Shown: positions 9,136-25,687 of the stretch, in pieces
Numbering within the stretch: the first letter of the stretch is position 1
Layout of the letters: every line of letters begins with the position of its first letter
DNA from: Rickettsiales bacterium
GTDB taxonomy: Bacteria; Pseudomonadota; Alphaproteobacteria; Rs-D84
Direction of reading: 5' to 3'
Assembly: GCA_031265235.1 (NCBI GenBank)
Contig: JAISCX010000005.1
Span: forward strand, 3,912-35,911
DNA: 32,000 nt
Translations under genes and position numbers: made by a program
Notes under the pieces: model-generated
What the model was told of the DNA's origin: nothing
Databases searched by the model: none
The model's input: the letters and a program-made list of their open reading frames with translations, nothing else

Positions 9136-9866
9136 TGTTCTTATTAAAAGACAGGGTTGCATTGATAACCGGCGCAACCGGCGGCATAGGCGAGGCGATC
9201 GCCCGCGAATTCGCGCGCATGGGCGCCACGGTTGTTCTTACCGGCCGCAATGCAGACAAATTGGAAAAATTAAAAAATGAAACCGGCGGGATTGTAATAG
9301 CGGCCGATTTGGGGCAGGCGGGCGAAGCAGACCGACTGATCAAAGAAACAATTGAGAAAGCCGGGCGGATAGATATTCTGGTAAACAATGCGGGCCTGAC
9401 GCGCGATACACTTTTGATGCGCATGACCGACGCCCAGTTCGACGAAGTCATGAACGTAAACCTGCGCGCAACGTTCCAGCTGTGCCGCGCATGCGTCATG
9501 CCCATGATGAAGAACAAGTTCGGCCGCATTATCAATATTTCCAGCATCGTGGGATATATCGGCGGTCCGGGCCAGGCGAACTATGCGGCGTCCAAGGGCG
9601 CGATTGTCGCAATGACAAAGTCAATCGCCGCCGAAGTCGCATCCCGCGGCATCACCGCGAACTGCATCGCGCCCGGATTTATCAAAACCGCAATGACGGA
9701 CGTTTTGCCGGACGAATTAAAAGAAACATATCTGAAACAAATCCCCGCGGGGCGTTTCGGCGAGCCAGCCGACATCGCGAACGCCGCGGTATTTTTGGCC
9801 AGTGACGAGGCATCATACATAAACGGCCAAACATTGCACGTAAACGGCGGAATGGGACGATTTTAA
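9135..9866 (+). CDS. fabG: 3-oxoacyl-ACP reductase
   Basis: This is an SDR with TGATGGIG, NNAG, and the catalytic S...YAASK. The length and the C-terminal GQTLHVNGGM are typical of FabG. Confidence 0.93.
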   Translation: MFLLKDRVALITGATGGIGEAIAREFARMGATVVLTGRNADKLEKLKNETGGIVIAADLGQAGEADRLIKETIEKAGRIDILVNNAGLTRDTLLMRMTDAQFDEVMNVNLRATFQLCRACVMPMMKNKFGRIINISSIVGYIGGPGQANYAASKGAIVAMTKSIAAEVASRGITANCIAPGFIKTAMTDVLPDELKETYLKQIPAGRFGEPADIANAAVFLASDEASYINGQTLHVNGGMGRF

Positions 9867-11644
9867 GAATTTTTTTTCATTGCGCGCAATATCACCATCG
9901 TCCCCGATGGCGTGACCCCGGGAATCCGCGATAATGCGGCAATATTTTCCGGGCGCGCGCGTGATAATTTTTCTTTCAATTCATTGGTCAGTCCCGACAT
10001 CGCCGCATAATCAAAATCCATTGGGATTTTGATATTCTTATCCCGCTGATAGCTTTCAATCTCGCGCGCCTGGCGCGCTATATATCCGGCATAAAATTTG
10101 TCATTTTCATTTCTGATTGCTGATTTTTGATTGCTGTTTTTTTCAAATTGTTCCGCTGTAACAAGACCCGATTCAACCCCGATCGACCCCAGGCGGAATA
10201 TCGCGTTGTCCGCGCGCAGCGACAATCTGTATTCCGCGCGTGATGTGAACATACGGTAAGGCTCGTCAACGCCCAGCATCGTAATATCATCAATCAGCAC
10301 GCCGATCATTGAATTTGTGCGATCCAATATTAACGATTGTTTGTTCATCGCATAGGCGGCGGCGTTCGCGCCCGCAACCAATCCCTGGGTTGCCGCTTCT
10401 TCGTATCCGCTTGTTCCGTTTATTTGACCGGCGAAAAACAATCCTGGAATATCTTTGGATTCCAATGTTGATTTCAGCGTGCGCGCGTCAATCGCATCAT
10501 ATTCTATGGCATATCCGTAACGCGCTATACGCACGTTTTCAAGTCCCGGGATGGTCCGCAGGAATTTGTCCTGGACCGCTGATGACATGGATGTGGAAAG
10601 GCCGTTTGGATAAATCATATCGCTGTCGATGCCTTCGGGTTCCAGGAACACATGATGCGACAAATGTTCCGGAAAGCGCATGACTTTATCTTCCAGACTT
10701 GGGCAATACCGTGGGCCGATGCCGGTGATTTCGCCGTTATACATCGGCGCGTCCGATATATTGCCGCGGATTACCGCATGCGTTTGTTCGGTGGTATGCG
10801 TTATGTGGCAGCTTCGCCGCCCGTGATTTGTGATTTGTGACCCTTGATTCGAAAACCACGGATGATCTTCGTCGCCTTGCTGTATTTCGCACTTTGAAAA
10901 ATCTATGCTGTCGGCATAAAGACGGGCGGGCGTGCCCGTTTTAAGGCGAATCAATTCAAACCCGGCCGTCATAAGGACCGCGGATATGTTTTTGTCCGGC
11001 GACTGGTATGTTCCGTCGTCCTGCAAGCGTCCGCTTTCTATTTTTTCCGGACCGCGGTGCACAAGTCCCCGAAGAAAAGTTCCGGCAGTGACAACGACTG
11101 CCTTTGCGCGATATTTTCCATTCACAATTTTATTTTGCAGGTCCAGGGATTCAACGGGTTCATATATGGTTGTCAAATTTGCTCGGTATAAATCCCCTTC
11201 GCTGGCGAAGGGGTGGCAGACGCCGAAAGCGGCTGACGGGGTAGTGGTCATTGATTCATTAATCACTACCCCGCCGCTAGCGCGGCACCCCTTCGCCAGC
11301 GAAGGGGAATTCAGACCGAGCAGGGTTTTGACTGCATCGCGATAAAGATCACGGTCAATCTGCGCGCGAAGCGCTTGTGTCGCCGGTCCGTGCGTCGCGT
11401 TCAGCACGCGGAAATGAATTCCCGCCATATCCGCGGCCCGTGGCATCATTCCACCCAGCGCATCAATTTCCGCCACTAATTGCGATTTCCCAGGTCCGCC
11501 TATGCTTGGGTTGCATGACATCGCGCCTATGTCTGTTTCAGATTTTGTAAACAATGCAACCGATGCGCCGCGCCGCGCCGCGGCGGCTGCGGCCTCTATA
11601 CCTGCGTGCCCCGCCCCGATAACGATAATGTCATATTCCTTCAT
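9863..11644 (-). CDS. mnmG: tRNA uridine 5-carboxymethylaminomethyl modification enzyme MnmG/GidA (carries repeat insertions)
   Basis: DIIVIGAGHAG FAD motif, MSCNPSIGG, GPRYCPSLEDKV, FFAGQINGTSGYEEAA and YRMFTSRAEYRL are all present. The ORF is intact at 593 aa. Confidence 0.95.
   Translation of the reverse strand: MKEYDIIVIGAGHAGIEAAAAAARRGASVALFTKSETDIGAMSCNPSIGGPGKSQLVAEIDALGGMMPRAADMAGIHFRVLNATHGPATQALRAQIDRDLYRDAVKTLLGLNSPSLAKGCRASGGVVINESMTTTPSAAFGVCHPFASEGDLYRANLTTIYEPVESLDLQNKIVNGKYRAKAVVVTAGTFLRGLVHRGPEKIESGRLQDDGTYQSPDKNISAVLMTAGFELIRLKTGTPARLYADSIDFSKCEIQQGDEDHPWFSNQGSQITNHGRRSCHITHTTEQTHAVIRGNISDAPMYNGEITGIGPRYCPSLEDKVMRFPEHLSHHVFLEPEGIDSDMIYPNGLSTSMSSAVQDKFLRTIPGLENVRIARYGYAIEYDAIDARTLKSTLESKDIPGLFFAGQINGTSGYEEAATQGLVAGANAAAYAMNKQSLILDRTNSMIGVLIDDITMLGVDEPYRMFTSRAEYRLSLRADNAIFRLGSIGVESGLVTAEQFEKNSNQKSAIRNENDKFYAGYIARQAREIESYQRDKNIKIPMDFDYAAMSGLTNELKEKLSRARPENIAALSRIPGVTPSGTMVILRAMKKNS
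10113..10140 (-). repeat. degenerate heptamer array inside mnmG (CTGATTG CTGATTT TTGATTG CTGTTTT on the + strand)
   Basis: Period-7 pattern read by eye. The sense strand encodes NSNQKSAIRN. Confidence 0.5.
10823..10841 (-). repeat. heptamer array (GTGATTT GTGATTT GTGAC on +; AAATCAC on the sense strand) inside mnmG
   Basis: Direct tandem repeat encoding SQITNH. Confidence 0.8.
11194..11307. repeat. 114-bp palindromic element inserted in-frame in mnmG (RPE-like)
   Basis: The termini CCCCTTCGCTGGCGAAGGGG (11194-11213) and CCCCTTCGCCAGCGAAGGGG (11288-11307) are reverse complements of each other, and each is itself a hairpin. The central stem is GGGGTAGTG...CACTACCCC (11238-11271). 114 nt is 38 codons. 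Confidence 0.8.
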
Positions 11645-12243
11645 AATTCATTTACCTTTCCGACAATACCGCGCATCATCGCCTCTTTAAAATAAACATC
11701 CGGAAATCCTATCCAGCCGCGGCTTGGGATCGCGCCGCGACAGCGCTTCATTATATCTTCGGGACAATTTATGCAAAGATTTCCATCCGCAGATTCTATT
11801 TTCATGCCTGGCGTGACTTTTTCTTTTCTGTCCGCGATTTCCAAAGCCTGCGGGATAAAACTTTTTACATCAACTTCATAATCGCAATCATACCAACCCG
11901 GCCCGCCATAGCCCCAGATATGATCATCCGCCAGATCACGGGCCAGCGCCATAACGTCCGTTCTTTCAAACGTGCATTTGCCATGCGGAGTATATCGCAG
12001 ATATTCTATTATTTGTTCGTCTGTTTTATTTTTTATCTCGTCAAGCAAGTCTTTGCGGTTTTCCGTGCATCCGCATTTTTCGTTCATATCAAAGACGCAA
12101 TTATCATGATTGCCGCATTCGCCGCATACCCGCCCAATCTCTTCGGCGAATTCGCAGGATAGCGCGATATTTTCGTAAAAACTATTCTCCCTGTATGCGC
12201 ATCGTTCGTGGCACCCGCGCCTACAGTTCTTGTTTTGTTCCAT
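11641..12243 (-). CDS. cysteine-rich hypothetical protein, translationally coupled to mnmG
   Basis: The ORF is open to 12339. I prefer the ATG at 12243 (MEQNKNCRRGCHERC...). It is ~200 aa with more than a dozen Cys in CxxC-like clusters (CRRGCHERC, CGECGNHDNC, CGC, CINC). Its stop overlaps the mnmG ATG (ATGA). I recognise no family, and the start is uncertain. Confidence 0.55.
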   Translation of the reverse strand: MEQNKNCRRGCHERCAYRENSFYENIALSCEFAEEIGRVCGECGNHDNCVFDMNEKCGCTENRKDLLDEIKNKTDEQIIEYLRYTPHGKCTFERTDVMALARDLADDHIWGYGGPGWYDCDYEVDVKSFIPQALEIADRKEKVTPGMKIESADGNLCINCPEDIMKRCRGAIPSRGWIGFPDVYFKEAMMRGIVGKVNEL

Positions 12244-12377
12244 TTTTTCGCTCTTTGCGCAGATTTTATCAAGAAAAAACTGGAAATCCATAAAAACTTG
12301 TATTAGAATATCGGGCATGGCAACAAAAACCATAATCATTATAGAATAAACGGCGATGCGCTTTGGCGTAATGCCCG

Positions 12378-12417: not shown

Positions 12418-15400
12418 ATGTATCCCAAGACCGACGCGCGCGCGAATTTCCCGCAGATGGAACAAGAAATACTTGGCTTTTGGCGCGCGAATGATATTTT
12501 TCACAAATCGTTGGAAAAGACAAAGGACGGCGCGCCGTTCACATTCTTTGACGGGCCGCCGTTCGCCAACGGCACGCCGCACTGGGGGCATGTCGGCGTG
12601 TCCGCGATGAAGGACATGGTGTTCCGTTTTAAAACCATGGGCGGGCGATATGTTCTGCGCGAACTGGGCTGGGACTGCCATGGATTGCCGGCGGAACAGT
12701 CTGTTGAAAAGTCGCAGAAAAAACTGGCCAAAGATATCGTCGCGGGTGCCGGCATTGGCGGGTTCTGTGAAATGTGCCGCGCGGACGTTCTGAAATATAC
12801 CGACGTATTTAAAAACGTATATGAACGCGAAGGCCGCTGGGTCGAAACCGGCCCCGAATTCGGTTACGCCACCATGGATAAAAACTATATGGAATCCGTC
12901 ATATGGGCGATCAAGCAATTGCATGACAAGGGATTGCTATATAAAGATTTCAGCGTTAATCCATTTGATTGGAAGCTTGGAACCGTGCTGTCTAATTCCG
13001 AAGCCGCCCAAGAATACATGGACGTGATTGACGACGCTGTGACTGTCTGGTTTGAACTGGCCGATGGGCGGCGTGTTCTTGCATGGACAACAACGCCTTG
13101 GACGTTGCCAGGGAATTCGGCGCTGGCGGTTAATCCGAAAATGAAATACGCCGTGATGCGTGATACTGACAGCAAAGAATACATAATCGCAGAATCCCGC
13201 GTTTCGGCATATGAAAAGCAACTTGCGACCACCGAGAAAATCGGCGAAGTCATGGGTTCCGAACTTGTCGGACTGCAATATAAACCGTTATTTGATTATT
13301 ATATCAAATCACAAGTCACAAATCACAAATCACTCTATACCGTAATCCCCGCCGATTATGTCAGCGACAGCGACGGCACTGGAATCGTGCATATTGCGCC
13401 CGCATTTGGCCAGGAAGACTTTTGGGCGGCGAAAAATATCGACCAACATTTTCCGGTTATTCTGAATGTGGATAATTATGGAAACTTTACCGATGAAGTT
13501 ACGGACTGGGCGGGCGAAAATATTTTCGAAGCCACGCCGAAAATCATCGCGCATTTAAAAGAATCCGGCAATCTTGTGAAAAAGGACCAGCACAAGCATT
13601 CGTATCCGTTCAGTTATCGCACGCATGAAAAGCTGATCTATCGCGCGGCGGATTCCTGGTATATAGACGTGCCGAAGATTCAGGAAAGGCTGATAGAGAA
13701 CACAAAAAAAACCGATTGGAAATCCGCGGGAGAACGGTTTATGCGCTGGATTGAAAACGCGCGGCCATGGGCGATTTCGCGCAACCGGTTCTGGGGAACC
13801 CCGCTGCCCATCTGGGAACGTGACGGTGAATACAAAGTATTCGGCTCTGTCGCGGAAATGGAAGAATTTTTTGAAACCAAGATTAAAGACCTGCACCGGC
13901 CGACATTGGATGCGCTTACCCGCGACGGATGGACGCGCATTCCGGATGTTCTGGACTGCTGGGTTGAAAGCGGTTCGATGCCTTTCGCCCAACTGCACTA
14001 TCCTTTTGAAAACGCGGAACGGTTTAACGCGACATTTCCTGCGGATTATATTATAGAGGGGCCGGATCAAACCCGCGGATGGTTCTATTCGCTGATGGTG
14101 CTGGCAACCGCTTTGTTTGACAAGCCGGCATTCAAAACCGTTTCCGTAAACGGACTGATTCTGGACGATCAAAAACGCAAGATGTCAAAGTCGCTGGGCA
14201 ATTATGAAGATCCGATGATTTTGCTGGATAAATACGGCGCGGATGCCGTGCGCCTTTACATACTTGGCGGCAACTTTATGAAGTGCGAACCGATCATGCT
14301 GGATAAAGCCGGCACAGTGTTTATAGAACCGACCAAGAACGTGCTGACGCCGTTATGGAACGCGTATCATTTCTTTACCCTGTATGCGAACGCAGGAAAC
14401 ATCACGGCAAAAAAAGTAGAAAAATGGTTTGTTGCGGAAAACGTTCTGGACAGATATATTCTGACAGAGCTGAACGAGCTGTTCAAATCATGCAATGCCG
14501 CGTTGGATGACTATAAGCCGGACACAGCCGTGCGCGCTATCTCTGAATTTTTGGAAATCCTTAACAATTGGTATATCCGCCGTTCGCGCGAACGTTTTTG
14601 GAACGAAGACCAGAATGCGTTCAATACACTGTGGACCGTATTAATCGACCTCTGCCGCTTGATTGCGCCGCTTGCGCCGTTCGTCACCGAATATATATAT
14701 CGCGCGATAACGGGATTGGAAAGCGTGCACTTACAGGCCTATCCGCATTACAATGAAAATAAAAACAGTATGGATTTGCTTTCCGATATGCGAAAGATCC
14801 AGGAAATCATATCCGTCGGGAAACAGCTGCGTGATAAATACGGATTGCGCAATCGTCTGCCGCTGGAACAAATATGGATATACGGCGACAGTTTAAAACA
14901 ATTGTTTATAAACCCTGAATTCGCAAATATTATTCGCGAAGAACTGAACATCAAATCAATGGGCGGAAATAGCGACATATCATCTGTCGCCGATTCGTTC
15001 GTGTATCTGATAACGCCGAAAATAGGCGCGCGCTTGGGCAGCAAATTGAAAGATATAATCGCCGCATCGAAACAGCCCGGGTTTAATCCGGACGCATGGG
15101 GATTGCTGCCGGATGAATTCGAAACGCGTCTTAATATGAAATCCGGCGTCACCGGCGCGGCGCTGCCGGACAATACCGCGGTCGTTGTGCTGGATACGAA
15201 TGTGACGCCGGAACTGATCCGCGAAGGACTTGCACGCGACGCGCTGCGCTTTATCCAAGACATGCGGCGGACGCGCGAACTGGATGTGTCCGACCGGATT
15301 GTTTTGGAATATTCCGCCGATCCGGAACTGGCCCTTGCAATATCCGCGCACGCCGATATGATAAAGGAAAACGCATTGGTTACAGAACTGCGCGAAAATG

Positions 15401-15468
15401 CGGACACCAAAGAATTCGAAACAGAAATCGAAGACAACAAATTCGGAATCAAAATAGCAAAAGCATAA
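12418..15468 (+). CDS. ileS: isoleucine--tRNA ligase (long, type-2/eukaryote-like form)
   Basis: 1016 aa with PFANGTPHWGH (HIGH-type), the WTTTPWTLPGN editing-domain motif, GTGIVHIAPAFG and KMSKS (KRKMSKSLGN). Confidence 0.95.
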   Translation: MYPKTDARANFPQMEQEILGFWRANDIFHKSLEKTKDGAPFTFFDGPPFANGTPHWGHVGVSAMKDMVFRFKTMGGRYVLRELGWDCHGLPAEQSVEKSQKKLAKDIVAGAGIGGFCEMCRADVLKYTDVFKNVYEREGRWVETGPEFGYATMDKNYMESVIWAIKQLHDKGLLYKDFSVNPFDWKLGTVLSNSEAAQEYMDVIDDAVTVWFELADGRRVLAWTTTPWTLPGNSALAVNPKMKYAVMRDTDSKEYIIAESRVSAYEKQLATTEKIGEVMGSELVGLQYKPLFDYYIKSQVTNHKSLYTVIPADYVSDSDGTGIVHIAPAFGQEDFWAAKNIDQHFPVILNVDNYGNFTDEVTDWAGENIFEATPKIIAHLKESGNLVKKDQHKHSYPFSYRTHEKLIYRAADSWYIDVPKIQERLIENTKKTDWKSAGERFMRWIENARPWAISRNRFWGTPLPIWERDGEYKVFGSVAEMEEFFETKIKDLHRPTLDALTRDGWTRIPDVLDCWVESGSMPFAQLHYPFENAERFNATFPADYIIEGPDQTRGWFYSLMVLATALFDKPAFKTVSVNGLILDDQKRKMSKSLGNYEDPMILLDKYGADAVRLYILGGNFMKCEPIMLDKAGTVFIEPTKNVLTPLWNAYHFFTLYANAGNITAKKVEKWFVAENVLDRYILTELNELFKSCNAALDDYKPDTAVRAISEFLEILNNWYIRRSRERFWNEDQNAFNTLWTVLIDLCRLIAPLAPFVTEYIYRAITGLESVHLQAYPHYNENKNSMDLLSDMRKIQEIISVGKQLRDKYGLRNRLPLEQIWIYGDSLKQLFINPEFANIIREELNIKSMGGNSDISSVADSFVYLITPKIGARLGSKLKDIIAASKQPGFNPDAWGLLPDEFETRLNMKSGVTGAALPDNTAVVVLDTNVTPELIREGLARDALRFIQDMRRTRELDVSDRIVLEYSADPELALAISAHADMIKENALVTELRENADTKEFETEIEDNKFGIKIAKA
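13309..13333 (+). repeat. heptamer array TCACAAG TCACAAA TCACAAA TCAC inside ileS
   Basis: Tandem repeat on the sense strand encoding KSQVTNHKS. Confidence 0.8.
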
Positions 15469-16735: not shown

Positions 16736-19162
16736 TCACTTATCCCTTATCTTCGCATTAAACTTACATTCCGTGTTCCTGATGATTTCATTTTGCAAAT
16801 CCAGCAAATCCGCATCGGTCATATTAGCGACAGGTTGCAATACTATTTCGAACGCCACAGATTTTTTTCCGTCGCCAAGATCGAACACATCAAATACATT
16901 TGTCTCATAGACGATTTCATTCGCGCCCAGAATCGCGGAAACAATATCCGATGGGTTGATACCGTTGTCCACGATAAACGCAAAATCGCGCGTGATCAGC
17001 GGAAATTCGGGAAAATCATTACGTGATGCGTGATGCGTGATGCGTGATGCGTGACACGCCGTATGTTCCTGCAAAATCTTTATATCGTCGACAATCCCCA
17101 GCACAACGTTCGTCTTGACACCGAAATGCTTTGCGATCAATGGATGCAGTTCGCCGAACTGCGCAGCAACCGTGCCGTTTTTAACTATGCGGCCCGCACG
17201 GTATGGATTCGCCCATTTTTGCGGCGCGGGATCGTTTTCAACATCGCCGCCGTCCAACAGATCCAACAGATCCCGGCGAACGTCGTAAATCTCTATCGCG
17301 CGGCCATGCTTTGCGCCCATGTTCGAACCCGCTATGCCGGTGCGCGCGATTATCAGCTGGTCATGCTGCTGGCCGGGCATATCCCCGTCAAACACGGTGC
17401 CCAATTCAAACAGATTCAGATTCGTCCGCCGAAACCGGTCGTTGAACGCGATCACGTCAAGCATGTTCTGGACCAGTCCGTTCCGCACAGTATTGAGATT
17501 CGCAACAATCGGATTCAAGACAGCGATATTCGGCCGGTCCGATAATAATTTCTCTTTCTCAGAATCGCCAAATCCGTATGTTATGGATTCATAAAGGCCC
17601 AGCGTGCATAAATACGTTTTCAAAGCATCGTTAATAGAATATATGACATCGGTATTATTTTTGCTCGCCACTAATTGCTCTTTGCTCTCTATCTTGTCAT
17701 ACCCATAAATCCGTATCAGGTCCGACACTATGTTTTCCGGTATCTCAACGTCCACGCGGGCGGGCGTGGGAATGATGGTCCATTCATCGCCGTCAATCTC
17801 AACACCGAATCCCAGATTTTCCAGAATTTCTTTCTGTTTTTCGGATGATAAATCAATTCCTGTTTTATGTTTGAACAATGCGGGCGTATACGGTATTCGC
17901 CGCGGGTCCAGAACTTTCAACCATTCAATCCGATCTGAATAATTTTCGGGATTTTCGCCCATGAATCTTAGTTTCGGATTTGTCTTGTCCCAGTCGCGGA
18001 AAGGGACGGCCACGTCACCGCCGCATGCGTCTGTTATGATTTTTGCGGACTGCATTATGCCATGGAACGTTATCGTGGGATCAATTCCGCGTTCATAACG
18101 ATACGACGAATCGGTGGAAAGGCCCAGGCGCTTCGCTGTCTTGCGAATTCCGACGGGTTCGAAATATGCCGATTCCAAAATGATATTTTTTGTATCATCT
18201 GTCGTCATGCCGCGCCCCCCCCCGACAATCCCAGCCAGCGCAAGGATCCCGTCCGAATCTGCGATAACAAGATCGGTCGCGGCCAATTCATGTTCCGCGC
18301 CAAATAGGTCCGTGAATTTTTCGCCAGGTTTTGCATTCCTGATAATTATGTCACCGTTCACCTGATCGGCGTCAAAGCAGTGCATAGGCTGGCCAATGTC
18401 ATAACAAACATAATTTGTCGCATCAATCGCCGCATTTTTGGGATTGATTCCGATCGCCGCCAACCGGTTCGCGATGCGGGGCGATGACGGCGAGATTTTT
18501 ATATCGTTAATTTCGCAGAAATAATATACGGGACATGCGGCATAGTTTTCAATGCGGGCGTTACGCGCACTGTCTTTGAATTCGCCGACATAATTGTCGT
18601 ACTTGTGTATGAATTTTCCCATGCCCGCCGCCGCAAGATCATGGGAGATGCCGCACACAGCCAAATAATCCGGACGGTTTGGGGTTATGCCTGCTTCAAA
18701 AGTCGTGATTTGCGATTTGTGATTTGTGATTTGTAATATCGGCTGACCGACAGTTTCGGATTTCTCATCCAATTCTATTATGCCGTCATGATCATCGCTG
18801 ATGCCCAGTTCTTTCGCGCTGCACATCATGCCGTTTGATTCAAACCCGCGGATTTTTCCGGCCTTGATTTCTATGCCGCCGATTTTACAGCCGGGCAGGG
18901 CGAGCGCAGATACCAATCCGACGCGGACATTCGGCGCGCCGCAGACAACATTGCGCGGCGTGCCCGCGCCATCGTCAACCAATAGCTTGTGCAGATGCGT
19001 ACCCGGAATATCTTCGCATTCCAGAATTCGCGCGGCAATCGGCGCCGGCGCGGTTACTATATCATCAACCTCTAACCCTATGCGCGTCAGGGCGGCGGCG
19101 ATATCCATTGGTGCCGCATCCGTATCCAGATAGTCTTTCAGCCAGTCGTATGTGAATTTCAT
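16736..19162 (-). CDS. pheT: phenylalanine--tRNA ligase beta subunit (carries two repeat arrays)
   Basis: 808 aa with MKFTYDWLKDYL, the tRNA-binding OB domain (VCGAPNVRVG), ITPNRPDY, the B5 domain and the C-terminal FDX-ACB domain (FPLITRDFAFIV). Confidence 0.95.
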   Translation of the reverse strand: MKFTYDWLKDYLDTDAAPMDIAAALTRIGLEVDDIVTAPAPIAARILECEDIPGTHLHKLLVDDGAGTPRNVVCGAPNVRVGLVSALALPGCKIGGIEIKAGKIRGFESNGMMCSAKELGISDDHDGIIELDEKSETVGQPILQITNHKSQITTFEAGITPNRPDYLAVCGISHDLAAAGMGKFIHKYDNYVGEFKDSARNARIENYAACPVYYFCEINDIKISPSSPRIANRLAAIGINPKNAAIDATNYVCYDIGQPMHCFDADQVNGDIIIRNAKPGEKFTDLFGAEHELAATDLVIADSDGILALAGIVGGGRGMTTDDTKNIILESAYFEPVGIRKTAKRLGLSTDSSYRYERGIDPTITFHGIMQSAKIITDACGGDVAVPFRDWDKTNPKLRFMGENPENYSDRIEWLKVLDPRRIPYTPALFKHKTGIDLSSEKQKEILENLGFGVEIDGDEWTIIPTPARVDVEIPENIVSDLIRIYGYDKIESKEQLVASKNNTDVIYSINDALKTYLCTLGLYESITYGFGDSEKEKLLSDRPNIAVLNPIVANLNTVRNGLVQNMLDVIAFNDRFRRTNLNLFELGTVFDGDMPGQQHDQLIIARTGIAGSNMGAKHGRAIEIYDVRRDLLDLLDGGDVENDPAPQKWANPYRAGRIVKNGTVAAQFGELHPLIAKHFGVKTNVVLGIVDDIKILQEHTACHASRITHHASRNDFPEFPLITRDFAFIVDNGINPSDIVSAILGANEIVYETNVFDVFDLGDGKKSVAFEIVLQPVANMTDADLLDLQNEIIRNTECKFNAKIRDK
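17022..17056 (-). repeat. heptamer array (GTGATGC x4 plus GTGACAC on +) inside pheT
   Basis: Four perfect copies plus one variant. The sense strand (GCATCAC) encodes HASRITHHASR. Confidence 0.85.
18705..18737 (-). repeat. heptamer array (GTGATTT GCGATTT GTGATTT GTGATTT GTAAT on +) inside pheT
   Basis: Tandem repeat. The sense strand (AAATCAC) encodes LQITNHKSQITT. Confidence 0.85.
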
Positions 19163-20866: not shown

Positions 20867-20938
20867 GTGATTTGTTATTTGTGACCTGTGATTTGTGGTT
20901 CGCGAAATTCAGGTCACAAATCACAAATTACCAATCAC
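20867..20938. repeat. inverted heptamer arrays in the rpmI upstream leader
   Basis: The left arm is GTGATTT GTTATTT GTGACCT GTGATTT GTGG. The spacer is TTCGCGAAATTC. The right arm is AGGTCAC AAATCAC AAATTAC CAATCAC. The arms are mutually complementary in several registers. Confidence 0.85.
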
Positions 20939-21125: not shown

Positions 21126-21977
21126 ATGGCCGGCAAATCAGCAAGCTCTAAAATATCGTCGCGAACAAGGGAAATGGCAAAAGCGGGCATTGCCGCCTGT
21201 CTTCTTCCTATTTTTTTTCTATATATGCTTCTTGACAAGCCCGATTACAAAATCATGAACGCATTTTCCGGAATAATCGTTCCCGTCGCGCATACCATAG
21301 GCGACGGGGTGTCCTGGCCGGTCCGCGCAATCGGACGGCTTGCGGGAAATGCCCGCGATCATGCGCGGGCCCTGGACGAAAACAAACGGCTGCGCGCGCA
21401 GCTGGACGCGGCATTAAGCTTGCAGAACGAATGCGCGGTGATGTTCGCGGAAAACCAGCGCATGGAACGCCTGCTGGACATGGCGAAATACGCCCCGGCG
21501 CATGCGATCGTCGCGCGCGTCATCCATGAAAACGCCGCCTTTCGGCACAACACCATTATTCTGGACAAAGGGGAAACCGCAGGAATACGCACGGGCCAGA
21601 CCGTATTAAGCCCGGACGGATATCTGGTCGGAATTGTAATCGACGCGAACCCCTTGCAGGCGCGCGTCCGAACATTGGAAGACGTTAAGTCAAACATATC
21701 CGCGCGCGTCGCGGGATCCAACGTATTCGGATTCCTAAAAGGCATGGGCAACGGCGATCCAATATTTGAATTTTTCAGCGACCAGGAATTCAAGCCGTCC
21801 CGCGGCATCCGTTTGATCACCAGTGGAATAAAGGGAAACCTGCCGAACAACATCCCTATCGGCATCGTAGAGGAAGACGGGACCAGCTCTGCGCGCGTTC
21901 GCCTTGGCGCGGCCAGCGGCAGCGTGCACGACGTCATGGTGCTGGAATTCAACGGCAAGGAAGGATATAAACAGTGA
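21126..21977 (+). CDS. mreC: rod shape-determining protein MreC
   Basis: 283 aa with an N-terminal membrane anchor, a coiled-coil segment (NKRLRAQLDAALSLQNE) and a beta-rich C-terminus (GYLVGIVIDANPLQARVRTLED...ITSGIKGNLPNNIPIG). It sits ahead of mreD-mrdA-rodA. Confidence 0.85.
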   Translation: MAGKSASSKISSRTREMAKAGIAACLLPIFFLYMLLDKPDYKIMNAFSGIIVPVAHTIGDGVSWPVRAIGRLAGNARDHARALDENKRLRAQLDAALSLQNECAVMFAENQRMERLLDMAKYAPAHAIVARVIHENAAFRHNTIILDKGETAGIRTGQTVLSPDGYLVGIVIDANPLQARVRTLEDVKSNISARVAGSNVFGFLKGMGNGDPIFEFFSDQEFKPSRGIRLITSGIKGNLPNNIPIGIVEEDGTSSARVRLGAASGSVHDVMVLEFNGKEGYKQ

Positions 21978-22037
21978 TTTGTGACCTGTGATTTGTAATC
22001 TGTCCGTTCAAATCACAAATCACAAATCACAAATCAC
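21974..22037. repeat. inverted heptamer arrays filling the mreC-mreD gap
   Basis: The left arm is GTGATTT GTGACCT GTGATTT GTAATCT and the right arm is four perfect AAATCAC units. The mreC TGA stop (21975-21977) lies inside the first unit. A 20-nt core (ATTTGTGACCTGTGATTTGT) is identical to 20877-20896. Confidence 0.9.
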
Positions 22038-22042
22038 TTAAA

Positions 22043-22519
22043 ATGCATTCATTAAAACGCATCTTTATCGTAATTTTTCCCTTTGCCATAACACTGTTGT
22101 TATGGCGGCTTTCTATTCCCGTATGGAACCCTTGCGGGATTTTGGCGGCAATTCCGATTTTTTATTATTCGTTTATTTCAGAGCGGCCCGGTTTTTTGCC
22201 CATGGCGATCCTGGGGTGTCTTTTGCTGGACTATAACTTTGACCTGATGCTTTTCTGGACATCAATGTTCTGCATAGCATACGCGGCGAACTATATGCAG
22301 ACCCTGATGCGGGCGGCGACACTTCAAGCGGCGGGGTTCTGGACATTTTCGTCCCTTATCGGAATATGCCTTGCAATCCTTGGAATTCACGCGTTTTTTT
22401 CAACATGGTCCGCCGCCGCAATATTGCAGGCGATATGGATGTTCGTATTAACAACCGCGGGATATGTCGCGTGGGTGAAAATAGGGAGAGTTTGCGGCCA
22501 GCAGTTGACCGCAAGCTAA
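22043..22519 (+). CDS. mreD: rod shape-determining protein MreD (assigned by position and hydrophobicity)
   Basis: 158-aa polytopic membrane protein between mreC and mrdA. The sequence alone is not diagnostic. Confidence 0.6.
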   Translation: MHSLKRIFIVIFPFAITLLLWRLSIPVWNPCGILAAIPIFYYSFISERPGFLPMAILGCLLLDYNFDLMLFWTSMFCIAYAANYMQTLMRAATLQAAGFWTFSSLIGICLAILGIHAFFSTWSAAAILQAIWMFVLTTAGYVAWVKIGRVCGQQLTAS

Positions 22520-22524
22520 GCTTA

Positions 22525-24315
22525 ATGCTGGACAAGCAAATCGCGCAAACTTTTGACCGCAGAGCCGCGCTGTTTATAACCGGCATGGCCGTGCTGACAA
22601 GCATGCTGGTGCTGCGCATGCTGCAAATGCAGGTGTTCCAGCATGGCAAGTACAAGAAGCTGTCCGAAAACAATGCGACCCGCATTCGCGTCAATCTTCC
22701 AGAGCGCGGCAAAATACTGTCCGCGGAAGGCAGCGCGCTGGCCCGGGATGAAAACGTTTACAGAATTTACGTAATACCGTCCGAAGCGGAAGATCTGGAC
22801 GCGCTTATCGACGCATGCCGTCACGAATTGTCATTAAAGCCAAACGATTTGGATCGCATAGATAAAAAAATTAAAAAACAGCGCCCCTTTCAACCGGTGA
22901 TAATAAAGGAAAGCGCAAACTGGCAACAACTGGCGCGGCTTCACGCCATCGGTTTGTCGGGGCTGCATATAGAATCCGGATTTTCAAGAAGATATCCCGG
23001 AAAAAGCCTGGCTTCGCACGTCATCGGATATGTCGGCGGACTTGAACTGACAAAGCCTAATTCCCGCATGCTGGATACCAGCCCGTTTTTAATGACCGGG
23101 ATGAGCGGACTTGAAAAGCAATATAACACGGAATTGGCGGGTGCGCCCGGGCAAAGCGTAATCCAGATTGACGCCGCCGGAAAAATTATCGGGCCCGACG
23201 CATCGCGCGAAGTTCCGGCGGAAGACGGGCGAACAATAAAGACAACTATCCGCGAATCCGTCCAAAAGAAACTTGAAGCCGGGTTAGAGCCGCACAAGGC
23301 CGCCGCCGGCGTCGCGATTGAAATAGCGACCGGAAACATAATCGCGATGGCGTCCGCCCCCGGCTTTAATCCCGATTCCTTTCGCAGCGACATCGGCGCG
23401 GACATTATGGAAAACCTTCGCAAAAATCCGATGAAGCCATTTATGAACAAAGCGATCGAAGGATTGTATCCGCCGGGATCCACTTTTAAAATCGTCGTTG
23501 CGCTGGCGGCTTTGGAATCCGGCGCGATAACGCCGTCCGAAAAAATATACTGTCCGGGACATTGGGAATATGGAAAACACCTTTATCATTGCTGGGAAAA
23601 AAGGGGGCACGGCTGGGTTGACTTAGAGGGCGCGATGGCGCATTCGTGCGACACTTATTTCTATCAGATCGCGCTGCGCATCGGGATAGACGCGATCAAG
23701 AACATGGCTTTGCGGCTCGGACTTGCCCAGAAACTGTTAAACGAACTGCCGCGCGAAAGCCCGGGCGTGATTCCGGACAGAACCTGGAAGGAAAAAAATG
23801 TCGGCGTTCGCTGGCAGCATGGCGACACGATCATATCCGGCATAGGCCAGGGATTCATACTTTCAAACTGTCTGCAATTGTGCGTGATGACGGCGCGCGC
23901 GGTTTCCAACAAGATCGTGATGCCCAGACTGGTTGTGGACGAGATGCGAGATCAGGAATTTGAATCGCTGGGTCTTCAAGAAAAAAATATCAAAATCATA
24001 ATTTCCGGGATGGAAAACGTTTTAAAAGAAGGCGGCACGGCGGCCGGATACGCAATAAATGTCAAAGGCATGAAAATGGGCGGCAAGACGGGAACTTCCC
24101 AGGTTCGCAGAATTTCGGAAGACGAGCGCGCGAAAGGCGTCCGATCCAACGAGCAGCTGCCGCGGCATCTGCGCAACCACGGCTTGTTTATCGGATTCGC
24201 GCCGACCGACAGGCCAAGATACGCCATCGCGACGATTGCAGAGCATGCCGGCGGCAGCAGCCCCGCCGCCAAGGTCGCGGCGGACACAATGCGGGAAATA
24301 TTAAAAAATCAGTAA
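22525..24315 (+). CDS. mrdA: penicillin-binding protein 2 (elongasome transpeptidase)
   Basis: It has an N-terminal TM helix, then GxxLA...N, the transpeptidase motifs STFK and KTGTSQV, and GFAPTDRPRYA. I prefer the ATG at 22525, just after the mreD stop. The track start at 22366 overlaps mreD. Confidence 0.9.
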   Translation: MLDKQIAQTFDRRAALFITGMAVLTSMLVLRMLQMQVFQHGKYKKLSENNATRIRVNLPERGKILSAEGSALARDENVYRIYVIPSEAEDLDALIDACRHELSLKPNDLDRIDKKIKKQRPFQPVIIKESANWQQLARLHAIGLSGLHIESGFSRRYPGKSLASHVIGYVGGLELTKPNSRMLDTSPFLMTGMSGLEKQYNTELAGAPGQSVIQIDAAGKIIGPDASREVPAEDGRTIKTTIRESVQKKLEAGLEPHKAAAGVAIEIATGNIIAMASAPGFNPDSFRSDIGADIMENLRKNPMKPFMNKAIEGLYPPGSTFKIVVALAALESGAITPSEKIYCPGHWEYGKHLYHCWEKRGHGWVDLEGAMAHSCDTYFYQIALRIGIDAIKNMALRLGLAQKLLNELPRESPGVIPDRTWKEKNVGVRWQHGDTIISGIGQGFILSNCLQLCVMTARAVSNKIVMPRLVVDEMRDQEFESLGLQEKNIKIIISGMENVLKEGGTAAGYAINVKGMKMGGKTGTSQVRRISEDERAKGVRSNEQLPRHLRNHGLFIGFAPTDRPRYAIATIAEHAGGSSPAAKVAADTMREILKNQ

Positions 24316-24322
24316 AGCTGAT

Positions 24323-24487
24323 TTTTTAGTGAAAGAAGTGAAACCGCAAAATCGCACAGCGATTTTGCTAAGTGAAAATAGTTAAAATGTGTCACGCAAA
24401 GCGCGACAACCACAACTTTTTTCACTTCTTTCACTGTTAAAATATGCAAAGCATATTTTAACTATTTCACTTTTTTCACTAAAAATT
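24323..24487. repeat. structured spacer built from GTGAAA-type repeats and nested hairpins (mrdA-rodA intergenic)
   Basis: TTTTTAGTGAAAGAAGTGAAA (24323-24343) pairs with TTTTCACTTCTTTCACT (24418-24434), and its start pairs with TTTCACTAAAAA (24474-24485). AGTGAAAATAGTTAAAAT (24371-24388) pairs with ATTTTAACTATTTCACT (24455-24471). There are two perfect hairpins: GCAAAATCGC-ACA-GCGATTTTGC (24346-24368) and GTTAAAATATGC-AAA-GCATATTTTAAC (24435-24461). Confidence 0.85.
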
Positions 24488-24502: not shown

Positions 24503-25687
24503 ATGGCAAAACAAGTCCGGGTTTCAAAATCGCAAAATATGACATTCCGCGAACGCACGCGCCTGTTCGGCTGGCCGCTGTTTATCATTATGTGCATAAT
24601 TCTGGCGCTGTCCGTCGCGACGCTATACTCCGCGGGCGCGGCCGATTGCACGCGACTGCCGGAATTCTGCGGGACATTCGGATCATGGCGCCCGTATGCG
24701 CTGTCCCAGCTTTCCAAGATAGCCGCCGGCATGATCATTTTCTTTATCGCCGCGTTTTCGGATATAAAGACATGGCTGAAATCATCCTATGCCATTTACG
24801 GGCTGGCGCTGCTTCTCGTGATCCTTGTGACATTCGTCGGGCACACCGGCATGGGCGCGCAACGGTGGCTGAACCTGGGCTTTATCCACATCCAGCCGTC
24901 GGAATTTATAAAGGTCGCGCTGATCATCGGTCTGGCGCGGTATTTCGCATGGATGAATTCAAACGATCTGGAACGTCCGGGCAATTATTGGATTCCGGCA
25001 ATAATGGCGCTGGTTCCTTTTTTGATGATCGTGGCCCAGCCCGACCTTGGAACCGCGCTTTCGCTTCTTTTCATAGCGGCCGGATTTTTCTATATCGTCG
25101 GCGCCAATAAAAAATGGTTCCTGATTCTGGGCGTTTTGGCCGTGCTGGCCGCGCCGGCCGTATGGTTCGCCGGACTGCACGGCTATCAGCGAGACAGGAT
25201 ACTGACGTTCGTGAATCCCGAACGCGATCTTCAAGGCGCGGGATACCAGATAAACCAGGCGAAGATAGCGTTCGGGTCCGGCGGCATTGTCGGCAAAGGA
25301 TATCTGAACGGCACCCAGTCGCATTTGTCATTCCTGCCCGAAAAGCAGACCGATTTCATATTCACGATGTTCGGGGAAGAGCTGGGCTTTTTCGGCGGAT
25401 TCATCCTGATACTGCTGTATTCCGCCATGATCGGGATAATGTTCTGGTATGCGAAAACGACCAGGAATAGATTCGGACAATTGGCATGTTTTGGTTTTAT
25501 GTTGAATTTCTTTGTTTATTACTTTATAAATATCGCCATGGTTTTGGGACTGATGCCGACAGTCGGCGTTCCATTGCCTTTCATGAGCTTTGGCGGGTCG
25601 TCGCTTCTTTCGCTGATGTTCGGGCTTGGACTGGTCCAGAACGCGCATATAAACAAGGACCAGCAGCTTTCCGGAAAAGGCTATTAA
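24503..25687 (+). CDS. mrdB: peptidoglycan glycosyltransferase RodA (SEDS family)
   Basis: 394-aa polytopic protein of the FtsW/RodA/SpoVE family with QPSEFIKV, PDLGTAL, LPEKQTDFIF and VGVPLPFMSFGGSS. GGAG lies 8 nt upstream of the ATG. Confidence 0.9.
   Translation: MAKQVRVSKSQNMTFRERTRLFGWPLFIIMCIILALSVATLYSAGAADCTRLPEFCGTFGSWRPYALSQLSKIAAGMIIFFIAAFSDIKTWLKSSYAIYGLALLLVILVTFVGHTGMGAQRWLNLGFIHIQPSEFIKVALIIGLARYFAWMNSNDLERPGNYWIPAIMALVPFLMIVAQPDLGTALSLLFIAAGFFYIVGANKKWFLILGVLAVLAAPAVWFAGLHGYQRDRILTFVNPERDLQGAGYQINQAKIAFGSGGIVGKGYLNGTQSHLSFLPEKQTDFIFTMFGEELGFFGGFILILLYSAMIGIMFWYAKTTRNRFGQLACFGFMLNFFVYYFINIAMVLGLMPTVGVPLPFMSFGGSSLLSLMFGLGLVQNAHINKDQQLSGKGY

Follow-up and report, generated by a model that had tools for sequence, protein, structure and literature searches.

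The 32,000-nucleotide (nt) window analysed here (assembly GCA_031265235.1 of a Rickettsiales bacterium, contig JAISCX010000005.1, positions 3,912–35,911) carries on its minus strand an intact mnmG (gidA), an essential gene of tRNA modification that here encodes 593 amino acids (9863–11644), into which a palindromic element is inserted in frame. The gene identity, proposed initially from the open reading frame (ORF) list, is confirmed by NCBIfam TIGR00136 (mnmG_gidA, 665 bits against a cut-off of 524.85) and by the Escherichia coli MnmG structures 3cp2 and 3ces, which match the ORF at E = 4e-156. The palindromic core, apparent from inverted repeats, RNA and DNA folds and translation, occupies 11194–11307, that is 114 bp or 38 codons. 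An inverted-repeat search bears out the initial annotation of its architecture: the 20-nt termini are reverse complements of one another (11194–11213, CCCCTTCGCTGGCGAAGGGG; 11288–11307, CCCCTTCGCCAGCGAAGGGG), each terminus is also a hairpin by itself with a perfect 9-bp stem, and the central stem (GGGGTAGTG / CACTACCCC) is present, reaching 18 nt at 83% complementarity. The degenerate 20-mer occurs twice in the window against 0.00 occurrences expected from dinucleotide shuffles of the window. Predicted folding of the element region is extreme both as RNA (−87.5 kcal/mol, z = −13.75) and as DNA (−53.1 kcal/mol, z = −12.63), with 0/200 shuffles as good in either case. The 38 codons stay open, as had been claimed, their minus-strand translation being exactly SPSLAKGCRASGGVVINESMTTTPSAAFGVCHPFASEG. 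An identical MnmG protein with an identical element is found in the independent Logan assembly SRR14710921 (locus L124); the element is not an assembly artefact.

The palindrome does not stop at the core. Its terminal inverted repeats run for 26 nt at 96% complementarity and are prolonged by outer arms, in which 11181–11193 (GCTCGGTATAAAT) pairs with 11308–11321 (AATTCAGACCGAGC). Because the inverted repeat continues outward in this way, the full element is probably 141 nt or 47 codons (11181–11321, boundaries good to a few nt), some 13 nt further on each side than the 114-bp core. Comparable outer arms (…TCGGTCTAAATT / AATTTAGACCGA…) border some copies elsewhere and the mnmG copies of three relatives. 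The AAT that had been remarked at both ends of the core is present, and is better described as belonging to an AATT junction and to the outer inverted arms: AAT/AATT on the two sides forms part of the inverted repeat and is seen at most family copies, so it is not a demonstrated target-site duplication. Rfam gave chance-level matches only (gathering thresholds for the whole window; E ≤ 10 for 11100–11400), blastn of the element against PLSDB plasmids gave no match, and no terminator or promoter consensus site was found at the element.

Comparison with related loci reveals that the element is modular. The basic module, of about 55 nt, consists of hairpin 1 (CCCCTTCGC-YR-GCGAAGGGG), the dinucleotide TG, hairpin 2 and then GGGGTAGTGG; a short A/T-rich flank (AATT or AAGT, sometimes after …CGGTCT) lies 5′ of it, and AT-rich sequence lies beyond GGGGTAGTGG, which is nearly invariant across the family and whose GTAG is invariant. 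We collected 142 complete half-units with an exact or one-mismatch hairpin 1 (115 of them unique) and built a covariance model, R1, from 51 half-units. Two matches in the window cover the full length of this model: a left half-unit on the plus strand (11189–11247; AAT, hairpin 1, TG, hairpin 2 and GGGGTAGTGG; 62.2 bits, E = 2.6e-19) and an inverted right half-unit on the minus strand, read on the coding strand (11263–11312; 64.3 bits, E = 4.8e-20). The next-best score in the window, besides partial and opposite-strand matches to these two modules, is 7.8 bits. The two opposed matches make the mnmG element an inverted dimer, with two modules arranged around a 15-nt loop and short outer inverted arms added; the single 114-bp palindrome of the initial annotation is thus real, and is recast as a longer dimer of a modular unit.

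Each part of the module can be placed in the mnmG copy. Hairpin 1 is present as CCCCTTCGC-TG-GCGAAGGGG on the left (11194–11213), a 20-mer that recurs in at least 41 assemblies, and as CCCCTTCGC-CA-GCGAAGGGG on the right (11288–11307), both with the perfect 9-bp stem. The left hairpin 2 (GCAGACGCCGAAAGCGGCTGAC; 11216–11237, plus strand) is paired in the DNA fold and shows compensatory changes family-wide, and its right counterpart (CCGCGCTAGCGGC; 11273–11285, minus strand) aligns to the R1 hairpin-2 positions. The central stem-loop (11238–11272) is made from the conserved tails of both half-units, GGGGTAGTGG and TCACTACCCC, around the AT-rich 15-nt loop. In related loci the module most commonly stands alone; it also forms inverted dimers of 94–142 nt, as in mnmG, dimers joined hairpin 1 to hairpin 1, tandem copies, and a collapsed form in which a lone hairpin 1 is flanked by AATT. 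A further arrangement was seen in the metagenome-assembled genome (MAG) Hs463_bin75, where a conserved spacer of about 40–60 nt (…ACTTCGTTTCAA…GCAGGCCATCAAATT) separates two hairpin-1 copies that face one another, the remaining unit parts pointing outward, at four loci (L012 4432–4510, L030 6918–7018, L052 2559–2638 and L063 4626–4724).

Hairpin 2 is selected for structure, not sequence. There are 111 distinct hairpin-2 sequences among the 115 unique units, of which 99% fold better than their own shuffles, with stems of 4–12 bp. At three of the four modelled pairs, 48–73 of 134 distinct sequences have changes on both sides, and at the fourth pair 15 do. The covariation score is 0.264 against 0.050 in shuffles (0/500 reach the observed value), and slid controls give at most 0.04; the alignment, being fitted to the model, leans towards structure, and independent folding of each sequence agrees. 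About half of the hairpin-2 loops read C-GNA-G (CGAAG 18, CGTAG 13, CGCAG 13, CAAAG 8, CGGAG 6). The d(GCGNAGC) motif gives exceptionally stable DNA mini-hairpins, and the loops are therefore no more than a hint that the element matters as folded single-stranded DNA.

At the protein level the element falls in the FAD-binding domain of MnmG, in the loop between helix 98–108 and the helix/strand 149–161, just after the helix ending …AVRTALEN. HMMER aligns the protein to E. coli MnmG with a break precisely at the insert and sets 57 query residues (119–175) against 23 in 3cp2, an excess of about 34, which makes the initial estimate (68 residues against 33) roughly right. AlphaFold2 with a 120-sequence alignment gave a mean predicted local distance difference test score (pLDDT) of 80.4 and a predicted template modelling score (pTM) of 0.80. 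Residues 113–149 fall below a pLDDT of 50 (block means 23–39) and residues 111–148 lack secondary structure, so that the model shows the insert as an excursion without structure, framed by secondary-structure elements of high confidence, in line with the surface excursion first envisaged. The insert-encoded peptides include SPSLAK and VVINESMTTTPSAAFGVCHPFASEGDLYR. Of the six frames of the element, four hold three to four stops each; only the frame in use and its palindromic mirror are free of stops. From the intact ORF we infer that the ribosome reads through the element, in which case the insert would be translated and tolerated as a flexible excursion that adds a net 42 residues. Neither the 48-residue insert nor the mirror-frame peptide matches NCBIfam or Pfam at E ≤ 10, save for a chance radical-SAM hit of 12 bits. 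The insert also has no significant relatives among 1.84 billion representative proteins; the four marginal matches are multi-repeat proteins, and the peptide search is unusable for a census.

A census at the DNA level reveals a large family. We scanned one genome per species (GTDB representatives) for exact hairpin 1, and the 20-mer occurs at no fewer than 120 loci in at least 41 assemblies of alphaproteobacterial type (species-level MAGs), counts that are biased lower bounds; the MAG Nl494_bin11 alone has at least 49 hairpin-1 copies in 151 kb of its DNA. The suspicion that the element is multicopy is thereby upheld, as shown for relatives. Across 716 kb of related loci R1 matched 385 times at E ≤ 0.001, with partial and opposite-strand hairpin-1 matches included, and full-length units number well over 200 among the matches listed. 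Nearly all host MAGs are labelled Candidatus (Ca.) Enterousia, 'Alphaproteobacteria bacterium' or 'Rickettsiales bacterium', and they come from the guts of humans, ruminants, horse, deer and termite, consistent with the reduced-genome order Rs-D84; gut MAGs with these labels are also the source of the closest MnmG proteins. Ca. Enterousia belongs to that order, whose genomes are reported to be mostly below 1 Mb and possibly partner-dependent (PMC12306168). The same paper makes no mention of repeats, and a search of the literature on repeats in Enterousia or Rs-D84 found nothing relevant; the family is apparently previously undescribed.

The family also occurs in bins assigned to other phyla. 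Full elements or half-units of the hairpin-1 family are carried by Deferribacteraceae TD116_bin76 (L002, L013, L014, L068, L077, L096 and L113), Spirochaetia MS502-68 (L053) and a Schleiferiaceae bin (L073), several of these bins probably deriving from communities of gut type. Either these contigs are mis-binned or the family has crossed phyla; blastp of these loci against the other loci gave matches of only 38–46%, compatible with mis-binning or with transfer. In Rhodanobacteraceae, Terriglobia, Streptomyces, an Actinomycetota MAG, Synechococcus/Prochlorococcaceae and a few other non-alphaproteobacterial MAGs the 20-mer stands without the other module parts, and these matches were set aside as other repeats or coding coincidences.

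The units lie mainly outside genes: only 31% of hairpins fall within open frames of at least 600 nt, against 74% of random positions in the same loci. A same-strand frame of at least 100 codons precedes 53 half-units; for about 20 of these the stop lies 1–7 nt ahead of hairpin 1, and the flank TAAAGT/TAAATT itself supplies TAA; at 24 half-units an opposite-strand gene ends at the tail side. The same distribution 3′ of genes is reported for repetitive extragenic palindromes (REPs; PMC3733652). Copies within genes form a substantial minority, and the expectation that other in-ORF copies would be found holds, since they keep the frame of unrelated housekeeping genes and have Pfam domains to either side. 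These genes encode PriA, MutS, RecG, XseA, ArgRS, PheT and a HemW-like radical-SAM protein, to which an Nth-like gene in the genome of the relative P0008 adds a full element. The encoded peptides recur as VPFAGEGVDGxAGRGSGN, SPSLAKGW…DGVV, TTTP…TPSPAKGT and HPFASEGE. A different in-frame peptide, NHP(A/G)xxGxTPPPLAGN, recurs in Nl494_bin11 (L032 1401–1453 region, and L109), where it occurs in RecG and in a 794-residue acidic protein among others, and points to another GC-rich palindromic family (GGTGGGG…CCCCGCC) colonizing the genes of that MAG.

The insertion that had been deduced from a single comparison is plain across orthologues: among the 120 closest MnmG proteins, 113 have a loop of 2–6 residues and the other seven one of 17–54. 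P0005, 78% identical over aligned columns, has an empty site at the DNA level. Three relatives, P0003, P0004 and P0008, share the architecture of the window's element and carry it at an identical codon, following K-x-L and starting CTCGG(T/A)CT…. In P0004 the element is complete with two arms, its hairpin 1 reading CCCCTTCCC(T/C)…GGGAAGGGG; in P0008 it is also complete, with hairpin 1 CCCCCTCC…GGAGGGGG and centre GGGGGAGCTCCCCC; P0003 has a single hairpin 1 between outer arms, which is what deletion between two hairpin-1 copies should leave, the copies being 90% direct repeats as well. Within each carrier lineage both arms share the same variant. The four carriers (the window, P0003, P0004 and P0008) form a clade in a neighbour-joining tree. 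Their coding sequences outside the element are 69–72% identical, and third positions agree at 47–48% for two relatives and 44% for the third; the left arm (CTGCTCGGTCTGAATTCCCCTTC) is identical at 23/23 nt between the window and P0004 and at 22/23 between the window and P0003. Arm identity at this level, despite third positions of 44–48%, means that the element is either constrained or homogenized, or else younger than the lineages. The P0008 copy in nth is of exactly its own mnmG subtype, which shows copies within a genome to be related to each other.

The loop is hospitable to other repeats too. P0002 carries an unrelated long palindrome in it (z = −8.8) and P0041 a palindrome of AAAGGAC heptamers (z = −8.6), marking it as a permissive site that has been hit repeatedly. 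The mnmG gene of P0004 (L123 528–2615) encodes 695 residues against about 550. Three of its in-frame inserts are clearly palindromic: one of the hairpin-1 family at the site used in the window, a second member of that family (hairpin 1 CCCCTCCTTAGGAGGGG) at FLEPEG|…|IYPN and, at YFS…CYITH, a palindrome of GAGCGCA heptamers. A fourth insert, a short palindrome (GTAGGGGCAAAT…ATTTGCCCCTAC), lies near NAAAVA…LDRT.

Among known systems, the initial annotation pointed to the Rickettsia palindromic elements (RPEs), which comprise RPE-1 to RPE-10 (Ogata et al. 2000, 2002, as summarized in PMC10969869 and PMC3733652). The two have much in common: both are palindromic repeats of about 100–150 bp that form a long hairpin in a reduced-genome alphaproteobacterial lineage; both stand between genes and in frame within unrelated, intact housekeeping genes, their encoded peptides being tolerated; and in both some insertions are common to several species and old (the mnmG copy probably so), with no cognate transposase known. 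The differences are that our hosts are gut alphaproteobacterial MAGs (Ca. Enterousia and relatives), not Rickettsia; that the mnmG family is modular (one hairpin conserved, the other hypervariable, the tail conserved), its module occurring singly, as inverted dimers or in tandem; that it lies mostly directly 3′ of genes; and that its encoded peptide has no NCBIfam or Pfam match, a weak negative given that an RPE model in those libraries is unconfirmed and the RPE consensus DNA uncompared. As far as these searches go, the element is not a sequence member of the RPEs, and its host lineage is a different one. The proposal of an RPE-like selfish element therefore stands as analogy (multicopy, in frame, mostly absent from orthologues) and falls as homology by sequence.

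In architecture the family resembles the REPs and their compounds, the bacterial interspersed mosaic elements and REPINs: its units are short GC-rich hairpins that occur as singlets, as inverted dimers folding into longer hairpins and in arrays, mainly downstream of coding regions. As with intragenic REPs (PMC3733652), a minority lies in genes, notably those of replication and repair (here PriA, MutS, RecG, XseA and Nth), and at least one repeat-rich genome of the group has a gene for a REP-associated tyrosine transposase (RAYT). Unlike in REPs, GTAG sits within GGGGTAGTGG, 3′ of hairpin 2, whereas the canonical tag (GTAG or CGTC) is 5′ at the hairpin foot (PMC3733652); no RAYT flanked by hairpin-1 units (a REPtron) was found, the RAYT that we did find having a different palindrome; hairpin 2 is hypervariable within one genome, whereas REPs are nearly identical within a genome; and in-frame intragenic copies seem far commoner in the mnmG family. 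Miniature inverted-repeat transposable elements (Correia/NEMIS, ERIC and Nezha; PMC10969869, PMC3184786) likewise are non-coding, measure 100–150 bp, have terminal inverted repeats, can make in-frame fusions and fold into long hairpins. For the mnmG element no target-site duplication is established, and no parent insertion sequence with the same ends was found in about 0.9 Mb of loci; half-units of the family also stand alone, unlike such elements. Integron attC sites have conserved short end motifs around a centre that is free in sequence and conserved in pairing, and are uniformly oriented after genes. The family resembles them in this logic only (conserved ends, a free but paired centre, uniform orientation after genes), a logic that implies recognition as folded single-stranded DNA; its units, in contrast, are scattered near or in housekeeping genes, with no integrase, cassette array or R/L box motifs.

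We also looked for what might move the family. Seven pairs of a forward unit followed by a reverse unit were found in about 0.9 Mb of loci; six are compact and one, a 771-nt case (L029 73–969), encloses a beta-propeller-like gene fragment, which is not a transposase, and an autonomous parent element was accordingly discarded. A phmmer search with RayT and IS608 TnpA query sequences, serving as a lead, pointed to one RAYT ORF, then confirmed by NCBIfam and Pfam, in Nl494_bin11, the repeat-richest MAG (L050 6018–6515; NF047646, 80 bits, E = 1.5e-22; Pfam Y1_Tnp). This protein of 165 residues has an HUH motif (MPNHIHII) and a tyrosine motif (YIHNNPV); its locus (L050 5822–6550, contig JAITCH010000004.1) has flanking palindromes (GGGGCGGGGTCTCCTGACCCCGCCCC, CGGGTGGGGGTCAGGAGACCCCCACCCG) and a direct repeat (GTGATAAAAT…GGGTGGGGG) on both sides, and looks like the REPtron of a different repeat family in the same genome. 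The window has no RAYT. The Nl494_bin11 enzyme as mobilizer is reduced to a weak inference, because the different palindromes at its flanks leave the proposed mobilization unsupported by context.

Taken together, we interpret the mnmG element as a copy of a non-autonomous hairpin repeat family with REP/REPIN-like architecture and distribution and an RPE-like habit of in-frame insertion, a reading to which we assign a probability of roughly 0.8. On this interpretation copies would most likely spread as folded single strands of DNA on which an enzyme works in trans, perhaps an HUH/Y1 transposase like RAYT; this is the weakest step, and by analogy such an enzyme is the most plausible mechanism. 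Selection would spare only those insertions whose length is divisible by three, that bring no stop and that fall in a permissive loop, which would explain why the same loop holds three kinds of palindrome in different lineages. With three deeply diverged relatives carrying the same kind of element at the same codon, the mnmG copy is probably not a recent insertion. That it was inherited from the common ancestor of the four lineages is likely and not proven, the carriers forming a clade with low bootstrap. After inheritance, the copy would have been kept palindromic and matched to each genome's own subtype by templated arm-to-arm correction, by gene conversion with other copies or by re-insertion. 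Quasi-palindrome template switching is a known mutational mechanism, and templated correction between arms may be what keeps the pairing near perfect.

Several observations weigh against this interpretation. The source organism shows one copy in its 32-kb window, so that multicopy status rests on relatives, where the counts from the 20-mer scan are biased lower bounds. Gene callers would miss frameshifted copies, an ascertainment bias in the in-frame evidence, and translation through the mnmG insert is read from ORF intactness only. No target-site duplication is definable, the sole empty site available (P0005) being too diverged to fix boundaries. Bootstrap values of the nested carrier groups (59%, 50% and 23%) are weak for a single ancestral insertion, and the second copy in the P0008 genome is as compatible with recent insertion or conversion as with inheritance. 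In the related loci the stretches between inverted units contain no transposase; the flanks of the RAYT carry other palindromes (GGGTGGGGGTCAGGAGACCCCCACCC and related), not hairpin-1 units, and its homologues (about 60% identity; three flank-checked) occur in other, non-reduced, low-GC bacteria with their own REPs each. Finally, conservation of the arms far above neutral expectation could mean a host function, not mere tolerance.

The best placed of the alternatives, improbable in our judgement, is that the four copies at the same mnmG codon are independent, recent and site-preferring insertions of each genome's active subfamily. The lineage-specific hairpin-1 subtype of each mnmG copy, the exact subtype (centre GGGGGAGCTCCCCC) found again inside nth of P0008, the weak bootstrap for carrier monophyly and the demonstrable, independent arrival of unrelated palindromes in the same loop would all suit it. 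It must be set against the clade formed by the carriers in the best neighbour-joining tree, the identical left-junction codon and nearly identical outer arm in all four, the fact that no target motif in common with the other insertion sites was seen, and the lack of an active transposase linked to the family.

Less probable still is co-option or retention of the hairpin for a function in the host, either as mRNA structure (an RNase site, pause or stabilizer) or as a protein-bound DNA site, with purifying selection keeping it palindromic. Conservation of the arms at 22–23 of 23 nt, compared with 47–48% at neutral sites, would follow from such selection, as would the joint change of both arms within each lineage, the abundant compensatory change in hairpin 2 across the family, the identity of hairpin 1 in at least 41 assemblies and the intergenic units set directly after stop codons in the manner of mRNA-stabilizing REPs. 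However, 113 of 120 close MnmG orthologues do without the element, that of P0003 has collapsed to a single hairpin, and the unrelated palindromes in the same loop of other lineages speak of permissiveness, not need; the conservation would follow just as well from concerted evolution with copies elsewhere in the genome, and no Rfam family, terminator or promoter signal was found at the element.

Two further explanations carry very little weight. The insert might be absent from the mature protein, through programmed translational bypassing (as with mitochondrial 'byp' hairpins) or removal from the RNA or the protein; the presence in a coding region of a GC-rich hairpin of great stability (−87.5 kcal/mol), for which AlphaFold gives no structure, would be in keeping with this, and we nevertheless regard it as highly improbable, for the length of the insert is divisible by three and its used frame has no stop (four of six frames hold three to four stops), related inserts in MnmG and seven other Pfam-checked genes are all in frame, the end codons (AAT and GAT) mismatch, unlike take-off and landing codons, and no intein or intron signatures were found. 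The least credible is a lineage-specific MnmG loop with a protein-level role that is palindromic only incidentally, for although four lineages have kept the insert in frame, the multicopy DNA evidence contradicts this reading: dozens of genomes have identical 20-mers and whole modules in non-coding DNA and in unrelated genes, and the peptide is predicted to be disordered, finds no significant relatives among the 1.84 billion representative proteins and differs greatly between lineages in which the DNA hairpins are preserved.

Beyond the repeat-family interpretation lies a bolder proposal, which we offer tentatively and at well below even odds: that gut Alphaproteobacteria, apparently Rs-D84, harbour a second, independent 'protein-coding palindrome' system, handled as single-stranded DNA by a dedicated enzyme and actively maintained. 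Its units may be defined by structure, combining an invariant recognition hairpin, a paired hairpin of free sequence with GNA triloops and an invariant GGGGTAGTGG tail, and its copies may be maintained by selection or by an active homogenizing mechanism instead of being mere junk. Maintenance of this kind would explain a near-perfect mnmG palindrome across lineages with near-saturated synonymous sites.

Other repeats and genes were recorded in the window. The mnmG gene itself has short in-frame heptamer arrays at 10823–10843 (minus strand) and 10109–10142. One, TCACAAATCACAAATCAC, encodes GSQITNHG at the variable WFS…CYITH site, where P0004, P0013, P0012 and P0041 have longer inserts, that of P0004 being a GAGCGCA-type heptamer palindrome in its DNA; the other has a period of 14 (CAGCAATCAAAAAT…) and encodes NSNQKSAIRN. 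Directly upstream of mnmG is a cysteine-rich ORF of 232 residues (11641–12339, minus strand), with a 4-nt overlap between its stop and the mnmG start; the P0003 loci have comparably sized ORFs (184–191 residues) upstream of mnmG. A second repeat family, of GTGATTT/CAAATCA-type heptamers, occurs at 20867–20938, 21973–22038, 13305–13333, 17022–17054 and 18705–18734, forming intergenic palindromes (36-nt and 30-nt arms) and short tandem arrays inside long ORFs that include an IleRS-like ORF (12418–15468) and the ORF at 16736–19162. Nested AT-rich inverted repeats at 24323–24485, for example AGTGAAAGAAGTGAAA / TTTCACTTCTTTCACT (16 nt, 100%), lie in the gap between the ORFs at 22366–24315 and 24503–25687.

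In-frame insertion of palindromes is itself known from the RPEs; what is apparently undescribed is the repeat family, which adds a second alphaproteobacterial group with in-frame palindromes, by way of repeats unrelated to RPE and at high density. Core genes of replication, repair and translation are hit, and one MnmG orthologue (the 695-residue protein of P0004) holds three or four palindromic inserts. The group offers an independent comparison on why small genomes tolerate or accumulate such elements, which loops are permissive and how hairpins stay perfect. In practice, the repeats inflate or fragment gene calls in these MAGs and can mislead marker-gene alignments and phylogenies; they could also serve as lineage markers.

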